Below are positions 4,293 through 59,153 of a DNA stretch of 64,000 nt, one piece after another. Under the pieces are notes generated by a model. That model had not been told where the DNA came from and did not search any database. It saw only the letters and a list, made by a program, of their open reading frames with translations. Within the stretch, counting starts at the first letter, position 1; the number at the start of each line of letters is the position of its first letter. This stretch comes from Candidatus Nomurabacteria bacterium (GTDB lineage Bacteria; Patescibacteriota; Minisyncoccia; Phycocordibacterales; UBA9973). The stretch is from positions 179,020 through 243,019 of the forward strand of contig CAWJHU010000001.1 in assembly GCA_963842815.1 (NCBI GenBank). Reading direction: 5' to 3'. Position numbers and translations under genes: made by a program.

Positions 4293-4976
4293 TCATTGTT
4301 TTGATAGAAAAGTCTCTAAATCTCCCACTGCCGTGACTAAATCATTGCTATATTTTTGATATTCGGAAAGTCCGGAAAGCCCAACGATGGGGTCACTTGA
4401 AATTTCCCCCAAATTTGAAACACTGATGCCGGTGTTGTTGGCGCTATTGGCTATGCGCAAATGATAATCCGCCAAACTTTGCGGAACGCTCATATCCATT
4501 ATTTTTTTAGCAAAATCTTCATAGGCGTTTCCAATTGCCGACAATTTGCTGTATTTATCGGCATTGTCTGCCGTTCCGCTTGCAGGACTTGCAGCAAGTC
4601 CGTTGCTTACAATGCTTAATTCATCCCCCAACCCGCTGTTTGCCTGATAGTTTTTAAATAAATTTTTCACATCCTCGTAGTATTTTTGTTTGGAAGCAGA
4701 ATCATCAGTGGTGCTCATTTTTACATCCGCTGCCGAGTAGCGGTCAATCAAATTTGGATTCACTATATTTTGTCCGAGAGAATTGGAAAAACTATTTATG
4801 GCATCGCTGTCGCTTTGTCCGGAAGATTTCAATGCCATATAGCTAGCAAAAAATTGCTGAGCGAATTTATCCGTCTCGGTCATATTTTGTTCTTCTGCGC
4901 TGGCGCTTTCGGATATATTCAATTCTTTCTTTTTATTTTCTATATAGGTGGCATCCGGAGTATTATTGAAAGTCAT
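4293..4976 (-). CDS. Hypothetical protein (227 aa); probably the C-terminal part of a ~330-aa membrane-anchored protein whose N-terminus is ORF 4963..5274 (frame break in an A7/T7 homopolymer at 4976..4982)
   Basis: The ORF overlaps the upstream ORF by 14 nt in a different frame. Removing one base from the T7 run (plus strand 4976..4982) fuses ...WGTGPEQK to MTFNNTPD.... Confidence 0.5.
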   Translation of the reverse strand: MTFNNTPDATYIENKKKELNISESASAEEQNMTETDKFAQQFFASYMALKSSGQSDSDAINSFSNSLGQNIVNPNLIDRYSAADVKMSTTDDSASKQKYYEDVKNLFKNYQANSGLGDELSIVSNGLAASPASGTADNADKYSKLSAIGNAYEDFAKKIMDMSVPQSLADYHLRIANSANNTGISVSNLGEISSDPIVGLSGLSEYQKYSNDLVTAVGDLETFLSKQ

Positions 4977-5274
4977 TTTTTTGTTCGGGTCCAGTACCCC
5001 AAAGAGCTTCTTCCCAATCCGGTATGCCGTCGCCGTCGGTATCCTTTTGAATCAAATCCGCAACGGATTGATTTTCCACCTGAAGAGCGGTTGCGTTTTT
5101 ATTTCCCGTAATGGAAAAACTTTCTCCCCGAGAGGACATAAAGAAAATCACAAAAATAATTATTCCCAGAACAAAAATCATGCCCGTTATTATTGCAAAC
5201 TTTTTGCTCGGCAAATATTTTTTATATTCTTCTTTTATTATTTTTTTTGCTGTTTTTTTGAAAAATTCTTTCAT
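4963..5274 (-). CDS. Small membrane-anchored protein with DTDGDGIPDWEE calcium-binding-like motif (likely N-terminal part of fused gene with 4293..4976)
   Basis: N-terminal basic stretch, then TM helix AIITGMIFVLGIIIFVIFF, then a DxDxDG motif. Confidence 0.5.
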   Translation of the reverse strand: MKEFFKKTAKKIIKEEYKKYLPSKKFAIITGMIFVLGIIIFVIFFMSSRGESFSITGNKNATALQVENQSVADLIQKDTDGDGIPDWEEALWGTGPEQKNDFQ

Positions 5275-5279
5275 ATTTT

Positions 5280-5681
5280 TTATCTGGATGTTCCAAAAAG
5301 ATTTATTGTGTCTAGACTGACAGTTTCAACACATACCGAAGGAGGACAAGGCCTCGTGCAAGTTATCATTGATTGCCCTTCATATTTGCCTAGGATTAAC
5401 CCGCCCATTTTTGGGGTAGTTCTGGTTTTAGAAGTTATATAAGAGGGAATAAAATAATTAATCGGGGTGCTCGTCTGGGAGCCAAGGGGTAAGATTGAAA
5501 TTGAGGTACCAAACATAGGGCATGTGTAGCCAGCATCCTTAAGTGCCTCTATTGGGATAGCGGTTGTTTCAATTACTCTCCCGCCAAAAAACTTTCCCAA
5601 GGAAAAAGAAGCGGAAACTACCCTAGTACTGGCAAATACCAGAAAAACGATTAGCAAAATAAAAATTATGCCTTTTTTCAC
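5280..5681 (-). CDS. Small secreted protein (133 aa), unknown function
   Basis: Signal peptide MKKGIIFILLIVFLVFASTRVVSA. First gene of a same-strand cluster of secreted/membrane proteins. Confidence 0.5.
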   Translation of the reverse strand: MKKGIIFILLIVFLVFASTRVVSASFSLGKFFGGRVIETTAIPIEALKDAGYTCPMFGTSISILPLGSQTSTPINYFIPSYITSKTRTTPKMGGLILGKYEGQSMITCTRPCPPSVCVETVSLDTINLFGTSR

Positions 5682-5713
5682 ATATATATTATAACAATAT
5701 TAAAAGATAGGTG

Positions 5714-6580
5714 CTACTCTTTTTTGTTGATATCTGCGTCTTTTACAAGATAAATCCAATCCATAAGCGAAAGTTCTTCCGCTCTTTTGTTTTTAAGGGT
5801 ATTTTCAGAGGATTTTTTTAGAAAAATTTGTGAATTTTTCAAATTTGACGACAGTTTTTTCCTTTTGTGGGCAAATCCGGCGCGAACTATCTCCCAAAAT
5901 TGTTTTTCATCTATTTTATTTTCGGTAAAAAGTTTTCTGGAAATATTTTTTATGGCAATTACAGCTGAATCCACTTTTGGAGCCGGTGAAAAATATCTTG
6001 CCGGCACCTTCATAATCATTTAGGTTCTCCATATGCTTTTACGGAGATTGAAAGAATACTTTCTTTTTTATCCCGAGCCATTATTCTTTGGGCCACTTCG
6101 TTTTGCACCATCAGAATCATTCTTTCCGGCTGGTTTTTTTCCGTCAGAAATTTTTTCAATATGGCGCCGGTAATGTTGTAAGGAATATTGGCGATAATTT
6201 TATAAAAACATGGCATGAAGTTTTTTTCATGGTCTGGCCGGGATAGGGACCCGGGGATCCGAGGACCTGAAAAAAATTTGCAGGCCATGTTTTTAATATC
6301 AGCGTTCAAAATATCTTCATTCATTAAAATTAATTTTTTATTTTTGATTTCCTCGGAAAATTTTTCTTGAAGCAGTTGAAAAAGATCTCGATCTTTTTCA
6401 ACTGCAATTACGCATCCGGCTTTTTCCAAAAGTTTTTCCGTGAGTACCCCTTTCCCTGGTCCGATTTCCAAAATAATATCTTCGCTCGAAATTTCTCCGG
6501 CTTCAACAATTTTATTGAGCGCAGGAATCTGATTTCAAAAAATTTTGCCCCAATGATTTTTTTGCTTTATGTATCATATG
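5714..6580 (-). CDS. ksgA: 16S rRNA (adenine1518/1519-N6)-dimethyltransferase KsgA/RsmA; two single-base frame breaks at homopolymers plus an in-frame 42-bp palindromic insertion
   Basis: Translations give [14 protein letters not shown] (frame C), then [44 protein letters not shown]..., then (third frame) [23 protein letters not shown]. These are the KsgA motifs GQNFL, EIGPG, NxPYNI and PPKVDS. The breaks are at an A-run near 6537..6546 and an A3 run at ~6019..6021. The inserted peptide [14 protein letters not shown] lies between the conserved D and the NIPYNI motif. Confidence 0.75.
6229..6270. repeat. 42-bp palindromic mini-element copy A (ATGGTCTGGCCGGGATAGGGACCCGGGGATCCGAGGACCTGA), in-frame inside ksgA, flanked by T-run/A-run
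   Basis: Near-identical to 8290..8331 (one G/A difference). It has internal inverted symmetry (GGTC...GACC, CCGGG..CCCGG), is GC-rich in an AT-rich genome, and its length is a multiple of 3. Confidence 0.8.
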
Positions 6581-8585
6581 TAAATTGTTTTTATTCCACC
6601 CTTCTCTCCTTCCTTTTCTAATAAATCTCCCGGAATATCGGAAATAAATTCGGAAGGAGTATTTATTTGGCGCGAACCGAAAATGGTGCGGAAATTCGCG
6701 AAAGATAAAAATAATTTTTCTTTGGCGCGAGTAAGGGCGACATAAAAAAGCCGGCGTTCTTCTTCTCTATCTTCGGCAGTTTTTATTTCACCGTCTCTTT
6801 CGTGCGGGAAAAGTCCGTCTTCCAGGCCGGTGATGAAAACATATTTAAATTCAAGTCCTTTTGAAGCATGCACAGTCATTAATTTCACCGCATTTTTTCG
6901 TCTTTTTTATTTTCCGTAATCATTAGCGAGTCTTGGTCTGAGGCCAGAGATGCATCTTCCAAAAGTTTTTCAATTCCCATTCCATCCTTTAAATTATCAT
7001 ATTTTAAGGCCAAAGTGGCCAATTCCTTTATGTTTTCCAATCTTTCCATATCTTCTTCCGTTCCCGCTTTAAGTTCATCTTCAATGCCGGATTTTTTTAC
7101 CGTGAATTTTATAACATCGGATGCTTTTTTATTTTTTATTTTTTCTTTTATTTCTTCCAGTGTTTTGTAAAAATTATCAATTTTTATTTTTATTTTTATC
7201 GGCAAACTTTCTTTTTCTCCGGCAAAAATTTTAGCAAAGTCACTTTCCCTATTCCCCGTGCCGGGAAATTTATAATTCTTTTTATATCCGAAAGACTTTC
7301 CGGATTAAGGCCGCGCGAAGATAAGCAAGAGTGTCTTTAATTTCTTTTCTCTCAAAAAATTTAACACCCAAAACTTGATATGGAATATTGTATTGAAGCA
7401 TTGCTTCTTCCAGCGCGCGCGATTGAAAATTTGCGCGGTACAAAATTGCAATTTCAGACATCGACTCATTCGATCCTATCTAGTATTTCCAAAATTTTGT
7501 CGCGACAAATCCGCTTCGTCGTTTTCGTCTAGCGCTTCATAAAAACCATTTTTTCGCCATTTTATTTTTGGTAAATAAATTTTTATCCGGCCTGATATTT
7601 ATTTTTCTTTGATTATTTCATTGGCCGCTTCCAAAATATTTTGCGTGGAACGGTAATTTTCTTCCAATAAAATTATTTTCGCTTTCGGATAATCTTTTTC
7701 AAAACTCAAAATATTTTTTAAATTTGCTCCGCGCCAGGAATAAATATTTTGGTCGGCGTCTCCCACCACGCAGATATTTTTATTATTTTCCGGAAAGCAA
7801 GTTTGGACATCAAATATTGCACTTCATTGGTGTCTTGATATTCATCAATGTGAATATATTCCCATTTTTCCTGATAAATTTTTCTGATTTCTTTATTTTC
7901 TTTCAGTAATTTTGTCGCTTTCAAAAGCAAATCATCAAAATCCAAAGAATTTTCTTTCGTTTTTTTTTTTTCATACAAACTCCACACTTGCGCCACGATT
8001 TTACCCAAGTAATCCGTTGCTTTTTCTGCATAATCTGCAAGATGGGTAAATTTCCCTTTTTCCCGGCTGATTATATTTTTTATTTTTTTCGGGTCGTATT
8101 GTTTCGGGTCCAATCCAAGTTCTTTCATGGCTTCTTTTATCAAGGTCGTTGAATCTGATTCATCTAAAATAGTAAAATGTTTGGTCAGCCCCAACAATTC
8201 GCGCATTTTCTTTGATTATATAAACTCCCAGAGAATGAAAAGTGCTAATAAAAGGCCTACTAACAACTTCGCCGGTAATACTTTTTTGAATGGTCTGGCC
8301 GGGATAGGGACCCGGGAATCCGAGGACCTGAGAAAAAGCATTACCGGCGAAGTTTGTTTTTATTGCCGAATTAATTCTTTCTTGCATTTCCTTGGCGGCT
8401 TTATTAGTAAAAGTAACAGCTAAAATTTTCTCCGGCGCCACCCCGTTTTTTATCAGATTTAGTATTCTGTGCGTGATTGTTTTAGTTTTCCCCGCCCCCG
8501 CTCCCGCCACAATCAAAAGCGGTCCCTCCATATGCATGGCCGCTTCCCTTTGTTTGTTATTGAGTTCCGATAAATGGTCTGACAT
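6574..8585 (-). CDS. uvrD: UvrD/PcrA-family ATP-dependent DNA helicase, ~670 aa, split into at least 4 frames by single-base homopolymer indels; carries in-frame 42-bp palindromic insertion
   Basis: The N-terminal fragment has Walker [11 protein letters not shown] and TFTNKAA. The middle has DEYQDTN and [39 protein letters not shown] (translated by me from 7230..7480). The C-terminal fragment has [24 protein letters not shown] and [15 protein letters not shown]. Removing one G from the G4 run at ~8178..8181 restores [18 protein letters not shown]. The inserted peptide [14 protein letters not shown] precedes ISTFHSLGV. Confidence 0.75.
8290..8331. repeat. 42-bp palindromic mini-element copy B (ATGGTCTGGCCGGGATAGGGACCCGGGAATCCGAGGACCTGA), in-frame inside uvrD
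   Basis: Same as copy A, with the same TTTTT...AAAAA flanks. It is translated in a different frame from copy A. Confidence 0.8.
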
Positions 8586-8639
8586 TCATCCAATATAACA
8601 TAAAAACTCATTTTGTTATTGATATTACTAGATTTATCT

Positions 8640-8880
8640 AAAATTCATCTCTAGGCTGGAGGAAGCTAGACTTTCTCCGGTTATCCACACCCCGATTGAC
8701 TTGAGTGAGGAAGTGAGCTACCCTTAATGTAGCCCTGGACAGGAAGTATGGAATAAATTGGCTGAACGGGCGAAACGACAGTAACCATCGTGAGAACCTT
8801 ATCCGCCATATGGCGGGTGCAGTACAATTCAGGTCGTCCTGTAATTCTACCCTTATATACTAATGTTTTTTTTGGGGTAA
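8640..8880 (+). ncRNA. Candidate structured cis-regulatory leader RNA (possible c-di-AMP/ydaO-type riboswitch) upstream of LysM-M23 peptidase
   Basis: A ~350-nt non-coding gap follows the uvrD start. It is unusually GC-balanced and contains the hairpins CCGCCATATGGCGG and the segment ACGGGCGAAACGACAGUAACCAUCGUGAGAACC, which resembles the 3' conserved core of the ydaO riboswitch as I recall it. The downstream cell-wall hydrolase is a typical ydaO target. Confidence 0.3.
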
Positions 8881-10018: not shown

Positions 10019-10061
10019 AGAAAAAAGAATATTAATGCTTTTTAGAAAATTTCAAAAACAA

Positions 10062-10140
10062 TGTTTTTAAGGGGTTTCGAGCGCGACGGCGCGAGAATTT
10101 CAGGATTTTTTAAGCTTCAAAAAATCCGTACCGGCAAAAA
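10062..10140. repeat. Intergenic repeat copy 1 (79 bp) with GC-rich 17-mer core GAGCGCGACGGCGCGAG, embedded in a ~110-nt long hairpin (arms 10047..10068 / 10136..10157)
   Basis: Near-exact duplicate at 15426..15504. The 17-mer recurs (reverse orientation) at 22186..22202 inside another long hairpin. Internal hairpin GGATTTTTTAAG/CTTCAAAAAATCC. Confidence 0.8.
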
Positions 10141-10157
10141 TATTGTTTTTGAAATTT

Positions 10158-10883
10158 TTATACTCCTGCCAATTTTATTGCACTGTATAAAACAGTGACC
10201 CCCAATATTGTAGCAACTGTGGTCCACATTGTGGGGTGATTATGATGGCTTTCAGGCAGTAAATCCGAGGCTCCAATATACAGAAAAAACCCACTAAATA
10301 TGGCTAAAATCACGCCTAGAGTGGCTTCAGAAACCGAAAAAAACAAAGTAGAAGTTATTCCCAAAACCGGAGCAATGGCATCAACAGAGAGCCATTTGAA
10401 TGCCTGTTTTTGTGTACCAGAATTTTTTAAAATCATATTTACCGTATTTATTCCGTCGGAAAAATCATGTACCAAGACGGCAACAGCTACAATGGCGCCG
10501 ACGGCGCTTGATACTTGAAAAGCCAAGCCGATGGCAACGCCATCCAAAAAACTGTGTATAGACAAACTTCCGGCCCCGAGCAACCCCCTCCTATTAGGAG
10601 GACAATTTTCGCTGTTGTGGTCGGAATGCGAATGAAAGAAAAAAAGTCTGTCCAAAAGCATGTAAACAATAAAACCAAGAGCCACAATGGAAGTAATAAA
10701 AGCGATATCATAACTTTGTTTCCCTAGGCTCAATGCCTCCGGCAATAAATCAAAAAAGGCTACGCCGATAACTGCTCCGGCCGAAAAACCTAAAATCAAA
10801 TGTAACTTATCTTTAAAACGCAAAGCAAAAATTCCGCCTAAAAAAGTGGAAACCAATGTCGCTATGCTTATCAAAATAATCAT
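10158..10883 (-). CDS. ZIP family metal (zinc) transporter, ZupT-like
   Basis: Multi-TM protein with a His-rich loop HSHSDHNSENCPP and the HDFSDG / HNHP motifs typical of ZIP transporters. Confidence 0.65.
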   Translation of the reverse strand: MIILISIATLVSTFLGGIFALRFKDKLHLILGFSAGAVIGVAFFDLLPEALSLGKQSYDIAFITSIVALGFIVYMLLDRLFFFHSHSDHNSENCPPNRRGLLGAGSLSIHSFLDGVAIGLAFQVSSAVGAIVAVAVLVHDFSDGINTVNMILKNSGTQKQAFKWLSVDAIAPVLGITSTLFFSVSEATLGVILAIFSGFFLYIGASDLLPESHHNHPTMWTTVATILGVTVLYSAIKLAGV

Positions 10884-12112: not shown

Positions 12113-13569
12113 ATGGACAGAGAGCCAAAAGATTGGGACGTAACCACTAACGCCAAACCGGAACAAATCATCAAACTTTTCCCAAAAACGGTCTATGAGA
12201 ATGAATTTGGAACCGTAATGGTTATTCAGGAAGATGTTCCTTATGAAACATTACGTCAAATAGAGGTTACGCCATATAGAATTGAGACAAAATATAGTGA
12301 TTTTAGACACCCAGACGAAGTAAAATTCAGCGACAAATTAGAAGATGACCTTAAAAGACGTGATTTTACTATAAATGCCATGGCCTTTAGAAATACAAAA
12401 GGCAATTCTAGTATAACGGACATGTTTGATGGATTAAAGGACATCAAAGATAAAATGTTAAAGGCAGTAGGGAACCCGGATGATCGTTTTAAAGAAGATG
12501 CTCTCCGAATGTTGCGAGCTGTGCGCATAGCTTTACAGCTTGGTTTTTCTGTGTCCTATGAAAGCAGTGAAAGTATTTTAAAAAATGCAAATTTAATAAA
12601 AAAAATTTCACCGGAAAGAATTCGCGATGAATTTACAAAAATAATTTTATCGGAAAATCCGTCTGTAGGAATTGTAATGCTGCAAAAATTGGATTGCTGA
12701 AAAATATAATTCCAGAATTGGAAGAGGGGATTGATTGTGAGCAAGGAGGGGAGCATATTTACGATGTTTTTAACCATTTGCTTCATGCCTTGCAACATTC
12801 GGCGGACAAGAATTGGCCTTTAGAAGTAAGGCTCGCAGCGCTTTTTCACGATATTGGGAAACCAAAATCTAAACGACTTGCTCCGCAGGAAAATGCTCTC
12901 CGTCATTCGCATTCCATCCTGGAAGGGCAAGATATTTCTGGCCGCAGCGAAGATTCCTCCGAGCATCTTCCTGCTACGCGAAAACAATTTACATTTTACG
13001 GTCATGAAGTTGTTAGTACAAAAATGGCAAAAAAAATAATGGAGCGATTAAAATTTTCCAAAAAAGAGATTGAATTAGTGGAAAAATTAGTTCGCAATCA
13101 TATGTTTTTTTCCGATACGGAATTAATTACGCTTTCCGCGGTGCGAAGAATTATTACCAAAGTTGGCAAGGAAAATATTTGGCTCCTGATGGATGTCCGT
13201 GAGTGCGATAGAGTGGGAATGAAGAAAAAAGAAACGCCCTATCGTCTGCGAAAATATTTTGCCATGATAGAAGAGGCATTGCACGATCCGATTTCTGTCG
13301 GACAGCTGAAAATTAATGGAGAATTTATGATAAAAGAGCTGGGAATTGTCCCCGGACCAAGAATGGGGTGGATTTTACATGCGCTTTTAGAAGAAGTATT
13401 GGATGATCCGAAAAAAAATACCAAAGAACATCTTTCAGAATTAGTTAAATCATTAAATGTACTTCCTGATGATGCCTTAAGGACATTGGGCGAGCGCGGA
13501 AAAGAAAAAAAAGAAGAGCTGGAAGAAAAAGAAATAGAAAAATTACATACAAAACATGGAGTGAGGTAA
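12113..13569 (+). CDS. cca: CCA-adding tRNA nucleotidyltransferase with HD domain. The true start is probably upstream (~12040) and there is one frame break at 12691..12692 (GG vs expected GGG)
   Basis: The head domain is (Y)LVGGCVRDILMDREPKDWDVTT...RRDFTINAMA. The HD domain is LAALFHDIGKPKS...FYGHEVV. Adding one G gives the continuous ...IVMLQKLGLLKNIIPELEE. Confidence 0.75.
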
Positions 13570-13590: not shown

Positions 13591-14499
13591 ATGAAGATTG
13601 GAATTTTTGATTCGGGGGTGGGAGGGCTGATTATTGCCAAGGCAATAAGAAAAGCGATGCCGGAATATGATTACGTTTATTTGGGAGACACAAAAAGAGT
13701 GCCCTATGGCAATCGTTCACACCAGGCTGTATTTGAGTTTACCAAAGAGGCGATGAATTATTTATTTAAGAAAGAAAATTGCGCCATTGTTATCATTGCT
13801 TGCAACACCGTTTCAGCCAGAGCGCTCCGAAGAATCCAACAGGAATATTTGATTGATTACAACAATACCCGCAGATTGATGGGGGAGTCTGTTGAAAGAA
13901 AAATACTTGGAGTTTTAATTCCTACAGCCGAGGAATGCGCCAAATATGGAAGAGTGGGAATTTTAGGAACTTCCGGAACCATAAACTCAAATACTTTTCC
14001 GAAAGAGGTCAAAAAAAAGAATTCATTACTTTTTCACGGCTCGCACTCGAACCTGAATGTGGTTCACGAACCTAATATTGCGTATGCCGAAAAAAGTAAG
14101 AATTCTTTTTCTAGAACAAAAGTTTTTCAAAACTCTGCGCCTATGCTGGTGCCTTTGATTGAAGAAGGGGAGAAAGTTTTGGCCAAGGAATTTCTTAAAA
14201 AATATTTAAAACCATTTTTAAATAAAAAATTGGATGCAGTTGCTCTTGGTTGCACTCATTATCCATTTTATAAGAACGAAATTAAAAAAATTCTCGGCAA
14301 AAAAGTAAAAGTAATTTCTCAGGATGAAATTGTTCCCAAAAAACTGAAAGATTATTTTGTCCAGCATCCGGAACTTGTAAAAAGATTGGCCCAAAATGGC
14401 AAAGCCAAAATTCTTGTTACCGATATAACTCCCAATATAATAAAACTGTCTAAAAAATGGTTCGGTAAAAATGCAAGGCCGGAATTAATTGAAATATAA
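13591..14499 (+). CDS. murI: Glutamate racemase MurI (with ~30-aa internal insertion)
   Basis: MKIGIFDSGVGGL, IIACNTVS and ALGCTHYP motifs. Extra segment NSLLFHGSHSNLNVVHEPNIAYAEKSKNSFS before PMLVPLIEEG. Confidence 0.8.
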   Translation: MKIGIFDSGVGGLIIAKAIRKAMPEYDYVYLGDTKRVPYGNRSHQAVFEFTKEAMNYLFKKENCAIVIIACNTVSARALRRIQQEYLIDYNNTRRLMGESVERKILGVLIPTAEECAKYGRVGILGTSGTINSNTFPKEVKKKNSLLFHGSHSNLNVVHEPNIAYAEKSKNSFSRTKVFQNSAPMLVPLIEEGEKVLAKEFLKKYLKPFLNKKLDAVALGCTHYPFYKNEIKKILGKKVKVISQDEIVPKKLKDYFVQHPELVKRLAQNGKAKILVTDITPNIIKLSKKWFGKNARPELIEI

Positions 14500-15369: not shown

Positions 15370-15425
15370 ATATTATTATGATAGCATAAAGTTTCACGGA
15401 TTTATTAGTAAAAAATAGGAAAATA

Positions 15426-15504
15426 TCTTTTTAAGGGGTTTCGAGCGCGACGGCGCGAGAATTTCAGGATTTTTTAAGCTTCAAAAAATCCGTACCGGCA
15501 AAAA
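15426..15504. repeat. Intergenic repeat copy 2 (79 bp) with 17-mer core, inside a long hairpin
   Basis: Near-identical to 10062..10140. Flanking arms AAAATATCTTTTT / AAAAAGATGTTTT are inverted. Confidence 0.8.
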
Positions 15505-15519
15505 GATGTTTTTTATTTT

Positions 15520-16434
15520 TTACTTTCTGCTGTGAAACTTTTTATGCACATCCAATAATTGTTTGTCGGTAACGTGCGTGTAGATTTGAGTGGTGGCAAT
15601 ATTTGAATGCCCTAGCATCATTTGTACACTCCTGATATCTGCGCCATTTTGCAATAAGTCGGTAGCGAAGCAATGTCTGATAATATGCGGAGTAACTTTT
15701 TTTGAAATGCCGGCCCTGATGGCATATTGCTTTACGATTCTCTCAATGGATCTCTTGGTCAATGGGCCGGTTTCTTTTTCAGAAGTTTCCTTTCCTACTT
15801 TTACAAAAAGGGCGTCGTCCATATCTTTTCGCAACGTCAGATATTTTTTAATAGCATTTTTCGCTTCTTGGGATATAAAAACTACGCGAACTTTTCCGCC
15901 TTTTCCGCGAATGGAAAATTGTTCAGAATGGAGATCAATATCATTAGTTAAACTGCAAAGTTCCGAAACGCGGAGACCGGTAGAAAAAAGAAGTTCCAAG
16001 ATAGCTTTATCTCGGAGTGATTTTATATCATTTCCTTTGGGAGCATCCAACAAACGGTGGAGTTCTGTTTGAGAAATTAAATCCAGAGATCTTTCGCTAA
16101 TCTTAGCCAATTCTATCCGCTCGGCGGACATAGTTTCTATTTCTTGCCGTGCCAGATATTTTAAAAATGCCCTGATGGCTATCAGGTAATAATTTTGAGT
16201 TTTCTTAGTTAAAGTTTCGCCGGTTGCCCTATTGTTGCCGGTGGATTGGCGGTTGAGCCAAAGGCGGAATTCTCGCACCACATTGTCGTTTATTTTTGCC
16301 GGATTATCATTTTTTATAAAATCTAAAAAGCGAGTGAGATAATGGTCGTAGTTTCTGACAGTATTGAGCGCTCGGCCTCTTTCTATTTCCACATATTCCA
16401 AAAATTGAGTTTTGAGCTGTTTTAAAGATGCCAT
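15520..16434 (-). CDS. xerD: Tyrosine recombinase XerC/XerD
   Basis: Phage-integrase N-terminal SAM-like domain plus C-terminal R..HxxR..Y motifs (RHCFATDLLQNGADIRSVQMMLGHSNIATTQIYTHV). Confidence 0.8.
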   Translation of the reverse strand: MASLKQLKTQFLEYVEIERGRALNTVRNYDHYLTRFLDFIKNDNPAKINDNVVREFRLWLNRQSTGNNRATGETLTKKTQNYYLIAIRAFLKYLARQEIETMSAERIELAKISERSLDLISQTELHRLLDAPKGNDIKSLRDKAILELLFSTGLRVSELCSLTNDIDLHSEQFSIRGKGGKVRVVFISQEAKNAIKKYLTLRKDMDDALFVKVGKETSEKETGPLTKRSIERIVKQYAIRAGISKKVTPHIIRHCFATDLLQNGADIRSVQMMLGHSNIATTQIYTHVTDKQLLDVHKKFHSRK

Positions 16435-21255: not shown

Positions 21256-22125
21256 ATGGATGAAAATAAATTAAAAAGTAAAAATGTGGAAACCTATGCG
21301 GAAGATATGGCCAAGGCCATTGGGGGCAATAAAGAAGGATTGATAAAAAAAATAATCCACGAAGAAGAAGAACACGAAGCCCAAAAGAAAAATTTATCTC
21401 CTAAATCTCAAAAAAATAGAATATTTATGCTCATCGGCATTATTCTCATAATTTTTGCTTTGGCTATTTTAATTTTTTTGGCATTTTTTAATAAAAAAAT
21501 TAACACTGTTTCCATTGCGCCCCAAATGGCTTCCCTTATTTTTACCGATCAGACCGATTTCAAAGCAATTGATGGATTTAACGAAAATAAAATAACGGAA
21601 ACCATTTTAAACCAAGTTAATAACACTAAAATAAAAATTGGCGGAATTGACGGAATTTATCTGACTGAAAATAATAAAGTTGTAGGGTTTAAAGAATTCA
21701 ACTCGCTCATAAAAAGCAGTCTGACTCCCGACCAGGTTAACTTAATTGGTGATAATTTTTTGCTTGGCGATTTTTACAGCGGATTGAAGCAAACTTCGCC
21801 CACAGCCGGGGATTTATTTATGCTTCTCAAAGTAAATTCTTTTTCCAGTGTATTTCCGATGATGCAAACTTGGGAAAATAAAATGCTTTATGATTTAGGC
21901 GGATTTTTCGGAGTAAATATAACTCCTGACACAAATTATTTATTCACAAAAAGTTTTGAGGACGGCATCGTGGCCAACAAAAACGCGCGAATGCTCAAAG
22001 ATAACAGCGGAAATATCGTATTGATGTATGTATTTGCCGATGATAATTCTATAATCATTTCCAATTCCACGAATGCGGTGAATGAAGTAATTTTGCGATT
22101 GAATTCCAGCAAGATAAAAAAGTAA
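21256..22125 (+). CDS. Hypothetical membrane protein (289 aa)
   Basis: Single TM FMLIGIILIIFALAILIFLAFF after a charged N-terminus. Confidence 0.5.
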   Translation: MDENKLKSKNVETYAEDMAKAIGGNKEGLIKKIIHEEEEHEAQKKNLSPKSQKNRIFMLIGIILIIFALAILIFLAFFNKKINTVSIAPQMASLIFTDQTDFKAIDGFNENKITETILNQVNNTKIKIGGIDGIYLTENNKVVGFKEFNSLIKSSLTPDQVNLIGDNFLLGDFYSGLKQTSPTAGDLFMLLKVNSFSSVFPMMQTWENKMLYDLGGFFGVNITPDTNYLFTKSFEDGIVANKNARMLKDNSGNIVLMYVFADDNSIIISNSTNAVNEVILRLNSSKIKK

Positions 22126-22232
22126 GCAGGCAGAAAACACAAAATTTTAGAGCCCGAGTATTTTTCTGCTGAAAAATCTCTCAAGACTCGCGCCGTCGCG
22201 CTCCGTAGTCTCTAAAATCTTGTGTTTCCTGC
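22126..22232. terminator. Long (~107 nt) imperfect palindrome / hairpin containing the 17-mer CTCGCGCCGTCGCGCTC (22186..22202), third member of the repeat family
   Basis: Arms GCAGGCAGAAAACACAAAATTTTAGAG / CTCTAAAATCTTGTGTTTCCTGCC. It lies between two plus-strand genes. Confidence 0.6.
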
Positions 22233-22285
22233 CTTTTTAAATATAGAATATTTGCTTTTTTTAATGAAAATGCTAGGCTTTAGGG

Positions 22286-48711: not shown

Positions 48712-50460
48712 ATGCAGATTGATAAAGAGCAGTTGAAAAAAGTTATTTTGGAATCGGGAATTATCTCACGCTCCGAACTGGATGAAGCAATTGAAAAAGC
48801 CGAAGCAAAAAAACAAAAGCTCAGCAATATTTTGTTGTCCGACGGAAAAATATCCGAAACCGATTTGAAGCGGATGGAAGCTTTTGTTTTGGAGATACCT
48901 TTTGTCAATTTAGTTAATAAAAAAATAGATTATGCCACCCTTTCTCTTATCCCCGAGCCCATTGCCAGGAATCACAATATTATTGCCTATAAAAAAAGCG
49001 AAACGGGATTGGAAGTGGCCATGCTGGATGTTGATGATTTGCCCATAATTGATTTTATCAAAAAACGCGCGGAAGAAAAAATTTTACCCCGATTGACTGA
49101 TGCAGATTCCATCAAGTTTGCCCTTACCCAGTACAGAAAAAGTTTGCAAGCGGATTTTGACAGTATTATTAAAAAAGAATCCGCTTCGCTTAAAACCGAT
49201 TCCAAAAACGAACCCGAAAAAACGGCGGAAGAATTGAAGGCCCTGGCGGAAGATTTGCCGGTCATTAAAATAGTGGATTCTTTGATTTCCCATGCCATTT
49301 TACAAAATACTTCCGACATTCATATTGAACCCGGAGAAAATGACTTGACCATAAGATACAGAATAGACGGCATCTTGCATGATGCCATGATTTTGGATAA
49401 AAGCGCCGCGCCCGGCATAACCACCCGCATAAAAGTGCTGGCCAATTTGAAACTGGATGAAAAAAGATTGCCCCAGGACGGCAGATTTAAAATAGAACAG
49501 AACGGAGAAAGAGTTTCTTTCCGTGTTTCCACCTTGCCCACTTTTTACGGCGAAAAAACTGTGGTCAGAATTCTGAAAGAAAACGCCCACGGCTTTTCTC
49601 TGGAGACGCTCGGTTTCCACGGCGAAGGATTGGAGCGAATTCATGATTCTTTGAAACAGAGAATCGGCATGGTACTGGCCACCGGGCCCACCGGAAGCGG
49701 AAAAACAACCACTCTTTATACCATGCTGGAAATTTTAAACAGGCCGGAAGTAAATATTTCTACAGTGGAAGACCCCATTGAATATCAAATGCCCAGAGTG
49801 AATCAAACCCAGGTAAAACCGGAAATTGGTCTCACTTTTGCCAATGGACTTCGCTCTCTTCTACGCCAGGACCCGGACATAATCATGGTTGGAGAAATTC
49901 GTGATGGCGAGACGGCTGGGTTGGCGGTAAATGCCTCGCTTACCGGGCATCTTGTTTTGTCCACCATCCATACCAACTCCGCTTCCGGAGCAATTCCGAG
50001 ATTGATAGATATGGGTGTTCTGCCGTTTTTGATAATTTCAACGGTGAAGACCATTATTGCCCAAAGATTGGTGCGAAGGCTTGTATCCAGCAAAGAAAAA
50101 TATTTCTTGTCGGCGGATGAGCTGAAAAATCTGGCAAAACTTGTTGACCTGGACCGAATGCTTCTGATGCTGAAGAATGAAAAAATTATCGGACCGGAAG
50201 ATACCTGGAAAACGGTCCCTTTCTATAAGCCGGTAAAAAATAACGAGTCTCCGGACGGCTATTCGGACCGCATCGGCATTCATGAAGTGCTGAAAGTGAC
50301 GGCTTCCATAAAGGAAATGATTATCCGCGGAAGTTCCCAGGATGAAATAGAAGTTCAGGCGAAAAAAGAGGGGATGATGACCATTTTGGAAGACGGAATT
50401 TTCCAATCGGTTTTAGGGAATACAAGTTTGGAGGAAGTGTTCAGGGTAGTTTCGGAGTAG
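48712..50460 (+). CDS. pilB: Type IV pilus assembly ATPase PilB (GspE family)
   Basis: T2SSE N-terminal domain, Walker A GPTGSGKTTTLY, Asp box, His box. ATG 48712 chosen (MQIDKEQ...). Confidence 0.85.
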   Translation: MQIDKEQLKKVILESGIISRSELDEAIEKAEAKKQKLSNILLSDGKISETDLKRMEAFVLEIPFVNLVNKKIDYATLSLIPEPIARNHNIIAYKKSETGLEVAMLDVDDLPIIDFIKKRAEEKILPRLTDADSIKFALTQYRKSLQADFDSIIKKESASLKTDSKNEPEKTAEELKALAEDLPVIKIVDSLISHAILQNTSDIHIEPGENDLTIRYRIDGILHDAMILDKSAAPGITTRIKVLANLKLDEKRLPQDGRFKIEQNGERVSFRVSTLPTFYGEKTVVRILKENAHGFSLETLGFHGEGLERIHDSLKQRIGMVLATGPTGSGKTTTLYTMLEILNRPEVNISTVEDPIEYQMPRVNQTQVKPEIGLTFANGLRSLLRQDPDIIMVGEIRDGETAGLAVNASLTGHLVLSTIHTNSASGAIPRLIDMGVLPFLIISTVKTIIAQRLVRRLVSSKEKYFLSADELKNLAKLVDLDRMLLMLKNEKIIGPEDTWKTVPFYKPVKNNESPDGYSDRIGIHEVLKVTASIKEMIIRGSSQDEIEVQAKKEGMMTILEDGIFQSVLGNTSLEEVFRVVSE

Positions 50461-50480: not shown

Positions 50481-51698
50481 ATGTTATTTTTATATAAAGC
50501 AAAATCAAAAAGCGGAGAAATTTTTGAAGGAACGATGGAATCAACGGACCGTTTTTCTCTTTCCCGGGAATTGAAATCCCGAGGAAATATTCCCATTTCC
50601 ATAACGGAGAAAAAAGACAATGCTTTTGATTTTTCAAAAATATGGGGGCGGTTTTTTTTAAAAGTAAAAATTGAGGAGCAAATTATTTTCACTAAAAATT
50701 TAAGCGGGATGCTCCGGGCCGGACTTTCTCTCTACAGAGCCTTGTCCGTTTTGAAAAAACAAACGAAAAATAAAGAATTCAACAAAGTTTTAACTTCGCT
50801 TTCCAATGAAATAAATGCCGGCGGGACGCTTTCTTCGGGGTTGGAAAAATTTCCGGATGTTTTTTCAAAACTTTTCGTTTCCATGTCCCGGGCCGGCGAG
50901 GAATCCGGCAATCTTTCCGATGCGCTTTCGGAAGTCGGTTCCAATTTGGAAAAAGCGCATTCGCTCACCAAAAAAATAAAAGGAGCGCTCATTTATCCGG
51001 GAGTAATTCTTTCGGCCATGGTTCTGATAGGGGTTTTGATGTTCGCCTTTGTGGTGCCCACCCTGGCCGGCACCTTTAAAGAACTCGGAGTGGACCTGCC
51101 GGCCTCCACGAAATTCATAATTTTCCTGGGAAACTTTTTTTCCCAATATTTAATTTTATCCTTTGCTCTCATTATCGGGTCTGTTCTGGGAATAGTTTCA
51201 CTTTTGCGGGCCGATTTTATGACTAAATATGTTGATTTTATAATTATCAGACTACCCATTGTGGGGAAAATATCCAAAGAATTGAACACTGCCCGCACCA
51301 CCCGCACCATGTCTTCGCTCTTGCTGTCCGGTGTTTCCATTACTCGGGCCATAGAAATAACCGGAGATGTGGTGCAAAATATTTATTATAAAAAAGTTTT
51401 ACAGCAAGCCAAAGAAGAAATAGAAAAAGGGGCGCCCTTTTCCAAAGCTTTTGAAGAACATCCGAATCTTTTTCCCATAATGATGACGGAGATGATTCAG
51501 GTGGGAGAAGAAACCGGGAAATTGTCGGACATGCTGGTTCAGGTTGCTTCTTTTTATGAGGAGGAAATAGAAAATAAAACCAAAAATCTTTCCATAGTTA
51601 TTGAACCGGTGCTGATGATTTTTATCGGCGCCGCTGTGGGCTTTTTCGCCATCTCCATGATTTCGCCTTTGTACTCGGTGATGGACAATATAAAATAA
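50481..51698 (+). CDS. pilC: Type IV pilus assembly platform protein PilC (GspF family)
   Basis: Two T2SS-F repeats, 3 TM helices, 405 aa. Confidence 0.8.
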   Translation: MLFLYKAKSKSGEIFEGTMESTDRFSLSRELKSRGNIPISITEKKDNAFDFSKIWGRFFLKVKIEEQIIFTKNLSGMLRAGLSLYRALSVLKKQTKNKEFNKVLTSLSNEINAGGTLSSGLEKFPDVFSKLFVSMSRAGEESGNLSDALSEVGSNLEKAHSLTKKIKGALIYPGVILSAMVLIGVLMFAFVVPTLAGTFKELGVDLPASTKFIIFLGNFFSQYLILSFALIIGSVLGIVSLLRADFMTKYVDFIIIRLPIVGKISKELNTARTTRTMSSLLLSGVSITRAIEITGDVVQNIYYKKVLQQAKEEIEKGAPFSKAFEEHPNLFPIMMTEMIQVGEETGKLSDMLVQVASFYEEEIENKTKNLSIVIEPVLMIFIGAAVGFFAISMISPLYSVMDNIK

Positions 51699-57407: not shown

Positions 57408-59153
57408 ATGCAGAGATATGATGAACTGTTGCGGACAATTTTAGGGAAAAGAGGTATAAAAACTCCGGAGGAAGCGGAGATTTTTTTGAATCCGGATTTT
57501 GAAAGGGATTTGCACGACCCATTCAAGATGAAAGATATGGAAAAAGCTTGCGTGAAGCTTTTTGAGGCCATAGACAGCAAAGAAAAAATCGTTATTTATG
57601 CGGATTACGATTGCGACGGCATTCCCGGGGCGGTTATTTTGGAAGATTTATTCAAAAAAATCGGTTTTACGAATTATGAAATTTATATTCCCGGAAGAAA
57701 TTCCGAAGGCTACGGGCTTAATCCTTCTGCCATAAAACAATTTGCAAAAGATAAGGTAAAACTTTTAATAACTGTTGACCTGGGGATTACGGCAGTGGCT
57801 GAAGTGGCCCAAGCGGAAGTTGAGGGAATTGAAGTGATTATTACCGACCATCACCTGCCGAAACAGAAAGTTCAGGGTGTAAAAAATTCTCCCGCCTTCG
57901 CCCTCGGAGACAAAAAGACAGGGGACCCACGGCTCCTTAATTTTTTACACCCCGAACTTTCTTTACCGAAAGCTTATGCAATATTAAATCCGAAGGTGGA
58001 TAATTATCCTGAAAAAATGTTATGTGGAGCAGGAGTAGTTTTTAAATTTGTGCAAGGATTTGTAAAAAAATACGGCGAATTTTATAAAATAAATATCGGT
58101 TGGGAAAAATGGCTTATGGATATGGCGGGGTTGGCCACTCTTTCCGACCTGGTTCCTCTTTTGGGAGAGAACAGAGCCATCGCTTATTTTGGGATGAAAG
58201 TTTTAAGAAAATCTTCCCGTCCCGGCCTGCAAAAACTTCTAGCCAAAATGAATATTGACCAAAAATATCTGACCGAAGATGATATCGGTTTTATGGTGGT
58301 GCCCAGACTGAATGCCGCTTCCCGGATGGATGACCCCATGAAGGCCTATGAACTTCTTTCCACAAGCGATGAGGTGAAAGCGGGAGTAATTGCCGGCCAC
58401 TTATCAAAAATAAATGATGATAGAAAAATAATGGTTGCCGGCATTATGCGGGAAGTGAATAAAAAATTTGAAAAACGCAAAATGGGAGAAGTTATCGTGA
58501 TAGGCAATCCGCAGTGGCGGGTGGGGGTTCTCGGGCTGGTGGCCGCCAAAATATCGGAAGAACACAAAAAACCCGTTTTCGTTTGGGGAAAAGATGAAAA
58601 TGACCTTATCAAGGGTTCCTGTCGTTCCGATGGATCGGTGTCCGTTGTGGAACTTATGACCGAAACAAGTGAATTTTTTGCGGAATTCGGCGGACACGAA
58701 TTTGCCGGCGGTTTTACGGTGCACAACGACAAAATTCATTTTTTAGAAGAAGCCCTTTCTCTTTCTTATAATAAAGTGAAGCGCGATAAAACGGAAAGTG
58801 AAATAGTTTATGATATTAAATCCGATTTAGGCGTAGTAAATATGAAAAATTGGAAAGAAATGGAAAAACTTGCCCCCTTCGGTCTGGCTAATCCCAAGCC
58901 AATTTTTCTTTTTGAAGGAGCAAAAATAGAAAATATTAAAAAATTCGGGAAAAACGGTTCCGGAGAACATTTGGAAATTACTTTTTCCGATGCAAGCAAA
59001 AATAAAGTTAAGGCAATTTCTTTTTTCTCAAATAATGAATCTTTTAAAGTTCCTTTATCGGAAAATTTAAAAGTAAATCTTTTGGCCACCTTTGATTTGT
59101 CTAGGTTTAGGGGCAAAGTTGAGTTAAGATTAAGAGTGGAAGACATTTATTAA
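57408..59153 (+). CDS. recJ: Single-stranded-DNA-specific exonuclease RecJ
   Basis: DHH motifs (IYADYDCDG, ITDHH) and a DHHA1 region (GGHEFAGG). Confidence 0.85.
   Translation: MQRYDELLRTILGKRGIKTPEEAEIFLNPDFERDLHDPFKMKDMEKACVKLFEAIDSKEKIVIYADYDCDGIPGAVILEDLFKKIGFTNYEIYIPGRNSEGYGLNPSAIKQFAKDKVKLLITVDLGITAVAEVAQAEVEGIEVIITDHHLPKQKVQGVKNSPAFALGDKKTGDPRLLNFLHPELSLPKAYAILNPKVDNYPEKMLCGAGVVFKFVQGFVKKYGEFYKINIGWEKWLMDMAGLATLSDLVPLLGENRAIAYFGMKVLRKSSRPGLQKLLAKMNIDQKYLTEDDIGFMVVPRLNAASRMDDPMKAYELLSTSDEVKAGVIAGHLSKINDDRKIMVAGIMREVNKKFEKRKMGEVIVIGNPQWRVGVLGLVAAKISEEHKKPVFVWGKDENDLIKGSCRSDGSVSVVELMTETSEFFAEFGGHEFAGGFTVHNDKIHFLEEALSLSYNKVKRDKTESEIVYDIKSDLGVVNMKNWKEMEKLAPFGLANPKPIFLFEGAKIENIKKFGKNGSGEHLEITFSDASKNKVKAISFFSNNESFKVPLSENLKVNLLATFDLSRFRGKVELRLRVEDIY

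Follow-up and report, generated by a model that had tools for sequence, protein, structure and literature searches.

How can one short, GC-rich sequence come to lie within the reading frames of two conserved genes? The question is raised by a stretch of 64,000 nucleotides (nt) from a Candidatus Nomurabacteria genome (assembly GCA_963842815.1, contig CAWJHU010000001.1, positions 179,020 to 243,019; hereafter the window), in which a sequence of 42 nt, here called core A, occurs once in ksgA and once in uvrD. The conserved 42-mer is the loop of a hairpin of ~95 nt, and the stem of this hairpin is local sequence.

Core A and its hairpin in ksgA and uvrD

The 42-mer ATGGTCTGGCCGGGATAGGGACCCGGG(G/A)ATCCGAGGACCTGA is located on the plus strand at 6229-6270 and 8290-8331, where the two copies are 41/42 identical and differ only at position 28 (R). 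An earlier note, made from the letters of this DNA alone, had described it as a GC-rich repeated mini-element of an AT-rich genome, flanked by a T-run and an A-run. Both exact matches were recovered, with 0 matches across 100 dinucleotide shuffles; both copies are bracketed by a T-run and an A-run, and the window has a GC content of only 31-45%. The predicted minus-strand translations likewise agree with the note in that the two copies are read in different frames. Its statement that the element is inserted in two conserved genes holds in part: core A is locally in frame in both, but ksgA and uvrD carry two and eight frame changes elsewhere in the window.

The description of the element as internally palindromic holds only weakly: by itself, the 42-mer has a predicted fold of -14.7/-15.0 kcal/mol, which is no better than its shuffles (z-scores of -0.9 and +0.2). 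With flanks included, the predicted folds reach -39 to -44 kcal/mol at 6203-6295 (z about -5.4) and -48 to -49 kcal/mol at 8262-8358 (z -7.4 to -8.9), because each copy has its own inverted arms; the hairpin stems mainly from these outer arms and not from the repeated sequence. In the window, the arms are inverted repeats of 22-32 nt which differ between the ksgA and uvrD copies, with the pair 6203-6234/6264-6295 being 78% complementary in ksgA and the pair 8265-8286/8333-8354 being 95% complementary in uvrD. Most copies share the consensus layout ...T5-6 GA/ATGGTC...GGACC/TGA A5..., in which a GA/TGA of 2-3 nt flanks the core; it is a possible direct repeat but may belong to the element itself. 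Core A is also dense in the sites GGCC, CCGG, CCCGGG, GGATCC, and GGWCC, which are otherwise rare in this AT-rich genome.

The same architecture was found beyond the window. The complementarity score of a copy's own two arms averaged 18.3 (minimum 14), compared to a mean of 6.8 between the arms of different copies, and high cross-copy scores came only from orthologous sites. The arms flanking core A measure 14-27 nt, and arm length overall varied from about 14 to 40 nt. The long inverted repeats differ at every locus, with only GGTC...GACC and the T-run/A-run common to the copies. The conserved part of the element is a loop of 37-42 nt, or about 55 nt including the two runs. Arms were found in every examined copy of core families A, B, D, E, and G, and the cores that were read at sequence level, namely those of families A and E and of the cassette at 14009-14115, are bordered by a T-run and an A-run.

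At several loci the arms could be related to native sequence or to each other base by base. In the ksgA gene of locus L022, which holds another core family, the 14 nt of the right arm are a perfect reverse complement of the left arm, which consists of the invariant QDIL codons (GCAGGACATTCTTG). In uvrD, at three positions a substitution between the window copy and that of L006 in one arm is matched by one in the other, and the inner stem of the L024 core has a compensated change from CCGGG/CCCGG to CTGGG/CCCAG.

Size and place of the insertion

The earlier note had put orthologs at ~14 amino acids (aa) shorter at both sites. This figure is too low: where the site is empty, close orthologs lack 22 aa in KsgA and 25 aa in UvrD. 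For KsgA, 120 relatives with about 62-75% identity by BLASTP (63-78% in the MAFFT alignment) were compared. The segment from DIL to YKIIANIPY spans 7-15 aa in the 22 empty proteins, with a mode of 12. In the carriers of core A, exactly 12 aa separate DIL from the core in 45/52 and 8 aa follow the core in 36/52. This 12/14/8 layout, set against the empty linker of mode 12, therefore gives a net gain of 22 aa (66 nt). Empty-site relatives of UvrD (75-80% identity, 643-644 aa) read ...EIKKNAKGQNAEPF... (ERIVAEIKKNAKGQNAEPFVSTFHS), and carriers have 14 residues, the core, and 9-12 residues before PF(V/I)STFHS, a gain of 22 to 25 aa. The 14 residues before the core in all UvrD carriers correspond to the full loop length of the empty-site relatives. 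With an identity of only about 75-80% between empty and filled relatives, the insertion boundaries at the DNA level are approximate. Compared to solved structures, carriers are 18-31 aa longer at the site; the excess over Bacillus subtilis KsgA is 18 aa and that of UvrD over the PcrA structure is 29 aa.

The ksgA site was also compared at the DNA level in four loci, of which L023 is empty, L024 holds core A in reverse orientation with arms of 17-18 nt, L025 holds it in forward orientation with arms of 25 nt, and L022 holds a different core. At filled loci, the native linker's place is taken by the N-terminal-side arm, of which the C-terminal-side arm is the reverse complement.

The loop position proposed in the earlier note agrees with the AlphaFold2 model of a KsgA carrier (P0123, mean pLDDT, or predicted local distance difference test score, of 87), in which the core and the C-terminal arm, residues 101-120, are predicted as low-confidence coil with a pLDDT of 57-58. 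They lie between the native helix 92-100 and the strand 124-128. In alignments to solved structures, the gaps opposite the inserts fall between conserved blocks. The model and the alignments together place the insert in a predicted surface loop which tolerates additions to the fold.

Exchange and inversion of cores at one site

The content of the ksgA site was surveyed in 121 sequences. Core A in reverse orientation occurred in 42 of them and with internal deletions in a further 8 (e.g., SxPRKKSPDH and SGYPASQRHH), while core A in forward orientation (the 14-residue reading) occurred in 14. At least five other, unrelated core families (D, G, H, I, and K) accounted for 29 sequences, 6 were unclassified, and 22 were empty. 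Forward and reverse carriers have the same 12/14/8 layout and similar arms, which makes inversion of the loop in place the simplest explanation. The core of the window's ksgA copy and that of L025 are 42/42 identical, although one is flipped relative to the gene. According to the earlier note, orthologs with the same peptide segment encoded by unrelated DNA would speak against an inserted element. The opposite was found, as related orthologs share the segment, the DNA, and the site, and some orthologs carry inverted core A or unrelated cores at the ksgA site.

Exchange was not limited to ksgA. At the uvrD site, P0003 and P0005 hold other cores at the same position, and a second hot spot of uvrD follows ...ATKILEI(L/M)D. 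The SQADGPRVSAPRARGDSDP core family occurs in both UvrD and UvrC, and the TLGRSDGDGQRKFSAENFRGE core family in both KsgA and UvrD. These other core families have locus-specific arms at the DNA level too.

Several unusual arrangements were observed among these cassettes. In the L006 uvrD gene, codons 361-452, which follow ...ATKVLEIMD, hold two adjacent cassettes of different families, each with its own arms of 16-24 nt; the double cassette folds at -119 kcal/mol and adds about 60 aa. In L004 (218-285, minus strand) and P0006, the ATCCG segment of core A is replaced by a nested 29-nt hairpin (GTTGAAATCTGCCCCGGGACAGATTTCAAC), which reflects either an insertion or a template-switch event within the core. 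The protein P0009 (from a JGI contig of 2305 nt) is a 569-aa product that begins as UvrD and ends as KsgA, with the junction lying exactly at a family-D core common to both. This is either a real deletion by recombination of two cassettes or an assembly collapse at the repeat. The two core A copies of the window are direct repeats 2061 nt apart and could recombine or collapse as in P0009.

Distribution and conservation of core A

In a scan with one genome per species, the core was found in three contigs of two Candidatus Nomurabacteria metagenome-assembled genomes. A metagenome scan returned 18 loci, of which 14 were true copies and 4 were chance matches in GC-rich DNA; the copies of both scans that have a taxonomic label or recognisable relatives were Nomurabacteria-like. 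After merging near-identical contigs, 10 sites of core A were verified at the DNA level in independent Nomurabacteria/Paceibacteria assemblies. Based on open reading frames (ORFs), Pfam, and matches to solved structures, eight of these sites are intragenic, in ksgA, uvrD, a CCA-adding/HD enzyme, a NifS/IscS-type cysteine desulfurase, uvrC, tsaD, truB, and uvrB. The other two sites are L011, without a long ORF, and L021, which is intergenic. The uvrD site has orthologous core A copies in L002 and L006/L019, and the copy in L006 is carried by an intact UvrD of 734 aa.

A continuous ORF was kept at 8/8 intragenic sites, with five reading frames of the core in use. Five of its six frames are stop-free, which is partly a by-product of high GC content, and the single stop-containing frame was used by no copy. 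A blastn-short search gave one core copy per locus. Querying with the five core translations, 251 candidate clusters shared words and 3 matched at E<=10, and the core is therefore rare overall. The 20-nt core had no match in viral contigs, and there is thus no sign of a phage vector.

At orthologous sites, the core is 93-100% identical, compared to 74-83% for the flanking coding DNA and 67-90% for the arms. As the same nucleotides are read in five frames, it is the DNA or RNA that is conserved and not the peptide, and a conserved loop at the protein level was rejected on these grounds.

Origin of the cassettes

These observations are probably, if not securely, explained by core A being a small, non-autonomous family of selfish, translated elements akin to the Rickettsia palindromic elements (RPEs), with arms and loop inversions that arise from template switching during replication. 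The cassette consists of a GC-rich core of ~37-42 nt between a T-run and an A-run, at the tip of the stem; the core would reach a site before its arms are formed. During replication, the nascent strand would fold back at the core, with the T-run pairing with the A-run, and copy its own upstream flank, i.e., undergo a template-switch mutation. A reverse-complement copy of native coding sequence would thereby be added on the other side of the core. Such events would yield locus-specific arms, a net insertion of ~66-75 nt, paired arm substitutions, and loop inversion in place; later events could repair mismatches on both arms at once and invert the loop. With intergenic space being nearly nil, copies would persist when they land in surface loops of housekeeping proteins that tolerate them, presumably without benefit to the host, and in-frame, stop-free copies would be translated as disordered loops rich in Gly, Pro, Arg, and Ser. 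Template switching is known to build stems, correct pairings, and flip loops (PMC8794818). The signs of this process were found here in one arm being the reverse complement of adjacent native sequence (the L022 arms and the linker lengths of 12 and 14 aa), and in compensated multi-base changes and loop inversion with the length kept.

A number of results weigh against this explanation. All 16 of 16 copies examined have arms, whereas some young copies without them would be expected if arms arose only later; the arms may therefore form during insertion. Relative to distant homologs of solved structure, the extra length (28 aa in NifS, 31 aa in TsaD, and 29 aa in UvrD) is close to a whole hairpin, so both arms could be foreign at some sites, and the identity of the native arm is ambiguous in NifS and TsaD. 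An old, neutral, vertically inherited insert needs gene conversion or selection at the nucleotide level to keep its core at 93-100% identity between flanks of 74-83%. Exact core copies number only 1-2 per genome, and neither a transposase nor another mobilising gene was identified among the window ORFs scanned (ten ORFs against Pfam in the case of transposases). The KsgA survey is moreover biased to reverse core A, because the query itself carried the core in that orientation.

The strong conservation of the core leads to an alternative that is unlikely but deserves weight, in which the hairpin is a selected nucleic-acid signal, such as a site for binding or processing in mRNA (of RNase III type, or for stability) or a cruciform in the DNA for a chromosome-handling protein; its place within genes would follow from the scarcity of intergenic space. 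It would account for nucleotides being conserved whatever their frame or orientation, for pairing kept by double changes in arms and inner stem, and for some cassette being held at the site by about 80% of the surveyed KsgA relatives. The host genes, mostly DNA-repair and RNA-modification enzymes, also fit a signal, but this bias may only mirror the gene content of a tiny genome. Unrelated cores replacing each other at one site, the 22 close relatives with an empty site, the internally deleted cores, and the low number of exact copies per genome are difficult to reconcile with a conserved function. Rfam gave no match to the element, either for the whole window at gathering score or for 5600-8700 at E<=1; only tRNAs and chance-level matches were returned, the best of the latter being RUF6-5 with 30 bits against a cut-off of 70. 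The T-run 5' and the A-run 3' of the core are the opposite of an intrinsic terminator, which was rejected as the T-run precedes and the A-run follows the hairpin on both strands. A CRISPR repeat was rejected as well, since the copies are solitary.

Rather improbable is a dedicated and undescribed insertion mechanism, which would make an inverted target duplication during integration. Synthesis at a nick could be primed by a hairpin or by fold-back, perhaps with an ectopic template for the core, and the arms would then not be replication errors of a later date. The presence of arms in every examined copy of the five core families, the T-run and A-run around all cores read, the use of the same hot-spot sites by several families, and the hairpin nested within core A in L004 and P0006 are all consistent with it. 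No candidate enzyme was found in the window, however, and arm length is variable. The L022 arms were apparently formed anew following a 9-codon deletion, which fits a recurrent process rather than a single event. Inverted repeats also lie around apparently native sequence at 48810-48890 and 50748-50871. Removal of the cassette at the RNA level, by splicing like an intron or by ribosomal hopping as in the byp elements of yeast mitochondria, is very improbable. The stem of -39 to -49 kcal/mol would set the flanks of the insert side by side, and GC-rich hairpin inserts in mitochondrial genes of Magnusiomyces are reportedly bypassed in translation. Neither frame preservation nor the absence of stops would be needed if the insert were removed, yet both hold at all eight intragenic sites (the chance of all lengths being multiples of 3 is about (1/3)^8) and the stop-containing frame is avoided; Rfam gave no match to an intron or ribozyme model.

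Artefacts can practically be dismissed. The core's CCCGGGGATCC resembles the SmaI-BamHI stretch of the pUC polylinker, frameshifts are numerous in the window, and the order of flank, core, and reversed flank is superficially like a fold-back chimera. The same core, however, recurs at identical codon positions in assemblies made independently by several projects (NCBI, JGI, and ENA), which also disposes of the chimeric-read artefact raised in the earlier note. Together with the natural variants GGGAATCC, GGGGAACC, and GGGTAACC, the invariably kept frame, and the presence of the core in dozens of database proteins, this led to the rejection of vector or adapter contamination as well as of a fold-back chimera.

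Should the selfish, template-switching element be the correct explanation, in-frame selfish DNA in proteins, so far mainly a matter of Rickettsia, would extend to the Candidate Phyla Radiation, a very large and little-understood group of bacteria, and the cassettes would offer a natural system for template switching that builds, repairs, and flips long hairpins in coding DNA. Such events would add disordered loops to essential enzymes, including KsgA, UvrB, UvrC, UvrD, RecJ, TsaD, and TruB. In metagenome-assembled genomes, the cassettes cause length variation, chimeric gene calls such as P0009, and possible misassemblies. A further-reaching and doubtful idea is that Nomurabacteria/Paceibacteria hold an undescribed element with an interchangeable GC-rich loop cassette, which integrates by inverted rather than direct target duplication and is kept under nucleotide-level constraint in essential genes. 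If true, it would amount to a new transposition or repair mechanism, or to a nucleic-acid signal hidden in coding sequence.

Other cassettes and features of the window

Further cassettes occur in the window in three genes and in intergenic spacers (Table 1). The recJ gene was identified by the Pfam domains DHH, DHHA1, and RecJ_OB. The cassette of the CCA-adding enzyme shares its site with core A of L001 and L004, and a 72-nt stretch of the cassette at 14009-14115 recurs with 93% identity elsewhere in L001. The family E core of the intergenic cassette was found again, each time with different arms, in two more spacers, one at 15411-15521 and one, with the core inverted, at 22123-22239. In the syntenic locus L022, a spacer is absent at the position of 10046-10158. 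Exact inverted 12-mers 25-110 nt apart formed 8 clusters in the window, compared to 0.57 in block shuffles. The inverted repeats at 48810-48890 and 50748-50871 are 12-22 nt long and surround apparently ordinary coding sequence, with no distinct GC-rich core. Local inverted duplication may generally be frequent in this genome.

Table 1. Coordinates of core A, its arms, its host genes, and further cassettes in the window
Feature	Position	Strand	Remarks
Core A copy 1	6229..6270	+	GC-rich 42-nt loop in ksgA, read on the minus strand as 14 residues
ksgA copy 1, N-terminal-side arm	6271..6295	-	Encodes KNMACKFF; takes the place of the native 12-residue linker after DIL
ksgA copy 1, C-terminal-side arm	6203..6228	-	Encodes EKNFMPCF; imperfect reverse complement of the other arm; accounts with the core for the net gain of 22 aa
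Core A copy 2	8290..8331	+	In uvrD, read on the minus strand as (S) + 13 residues
uvrD copy 2, N-terminal-side arm	8332..8358	-	Encodes NFAGNAFS
uvrD copy 2, C-terminal-side arm	8262..8289	-	Encodes 10 residues; reverse complement of the other arm
ksgA (rsmA), host of copy 1	5714..6577	-	Two frame changes, near 6512 and 6015
uvrD/pcrA, host of copy 2	6574..8585	-	Eight frame changes
Intergenic cassette, core family E	10046..10158	.	In spacer
CCA-adding enzyme/HD cassette	12870..12985	+	Another core, in frame
Asp/Glu-racemase gene cassette	14009..14115	+	In frame
recJ cassette	57849..57978	+	Different GC-rich core, arms about 24-40 nt, in frame just after the DHH motif

The frame changes of ksgA and uvrD, ten within 2.9 kb (5714-8585), leave translations that are still very similar to homologs; some are located at A-runs and one at a GCGC repeat. 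A frame change also occurs near 12691 in the CCA-enzyme gene (12113-13569), and the window's homolog (4293-5274) of a 314-aa gene of L022 is split into ORFs of 103 and 227 aa. About 10 large neighbouring ORFs (about 500-977 aa) are intact. The frame changes reflect either recent decay or a local assembly or indel error. An alternative genetic code was rejected as a reason for the broken ORFs, as the breaks are frame changes and not in-frame UGA codons.

In the region of ~10.9-12.1 kb, the GC skew changes sign at about 12 kb, from negative on the left to positive on the right, and gene orientation flips there from minus to plus. A cluster of four tRNAs is located at this switch, which looks like a replication origin or terminus, and a fifth tRNA is found at 14.5 kb. 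Between 39.5 and 45.0 kb, a unit of ~1.8-1.9 kb is triplicated with 64-99% identity; it encodes a protein of ~300 aa with a Por_Secre_tail C-terminal sorting domain, and NYN-domain proteins and a PemK/MazF-like toxin are interspersed.

Comparison with known systems

No such elements were reported for Patescibacteria, Parcubacteria, or the Candidate Phyla Radiation in the full-text literature searched. The closest in-frame intragenic precedent is provided by the RPEs (Ogata et al. 2000, as summarised in PMC10969869). The parallel drawn to them in the earlier note is well founded with respect to behaviour, since both are short, repeated, palindrome-forming DNA that lies in frame in unrelated housekeeping genes of a reduced genome, occurs in several families, and adds a peptide at positions tolerated by the fold. 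However, RPEs are about 100-150 bp long, conserved over their whole length, and found in Rickettsia, whereas core A is a loop of 37-42 nt on a locus-specific stem in Patescibacteria, and its cores flip and exchange at one site. Core A is set apart from RPE-1 to RPE-10 by size, architecture, and host rather than by comparison of sequences.

Miniature inverted-repeat transposable elements, such as Correia, ERIC, and RU elements, are similarly small, non-autonomous, and hairpin-capable, and occasionally form intragenic in-frame fusions. They are conserved along their entire length, with terminal inverted repeats shared by all copies and a direct duplication of the target site, in contrast to the cassettes, whose inverted repeats are not conserved between copies; core A has no clear direct duplication, and no parent insertion sequence was found in the window. 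Repetitive extragenic palindromic (REP) sequences and the REPINs (REP doublets forming hairpins) share the GC-rich character and the long hairpins with core A. Their arms are conserved and their loops variable, they are extragenic and of high copy number, and they are mobilised by RAYTs (REP-associated tyrosine transposases). Core A reverses this pattern, as it is mostly intragenic with a conserved loop, and no RAYT was seen.

Short, GC-rich, palindromic mobile DNA in AT-rich genomes is also represented by the GC clusters, double-hairpin elements, and byp elements of fungal mitochondria. These can land inside protein-coding genes as well, but they are organellar, and some are bypassed in translation rather than read. 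We know of no report of locus-specific inverted arms in these mitochondrial elements.

The arms themselves are paralleled by template-switch hairpins (PMC8794818, Mönttinen & Löytynoja 2022; PMC5453318, Löytynoja & Goldman 2017), with which they share adjacent reverse-complement copies, compensatory changes in one step, and loop inversion that keeps the length. Template-switch mutations have been described in RNA genes, in microRNAs, and in clusters of human mutations, but not for a family of mobile cores in bacterial coding genes. The conserved loop with locus-specific arms is accordingly best filed as an unreported architecture of an in-frame palindromic mini-element, rather than as a new mechanism.

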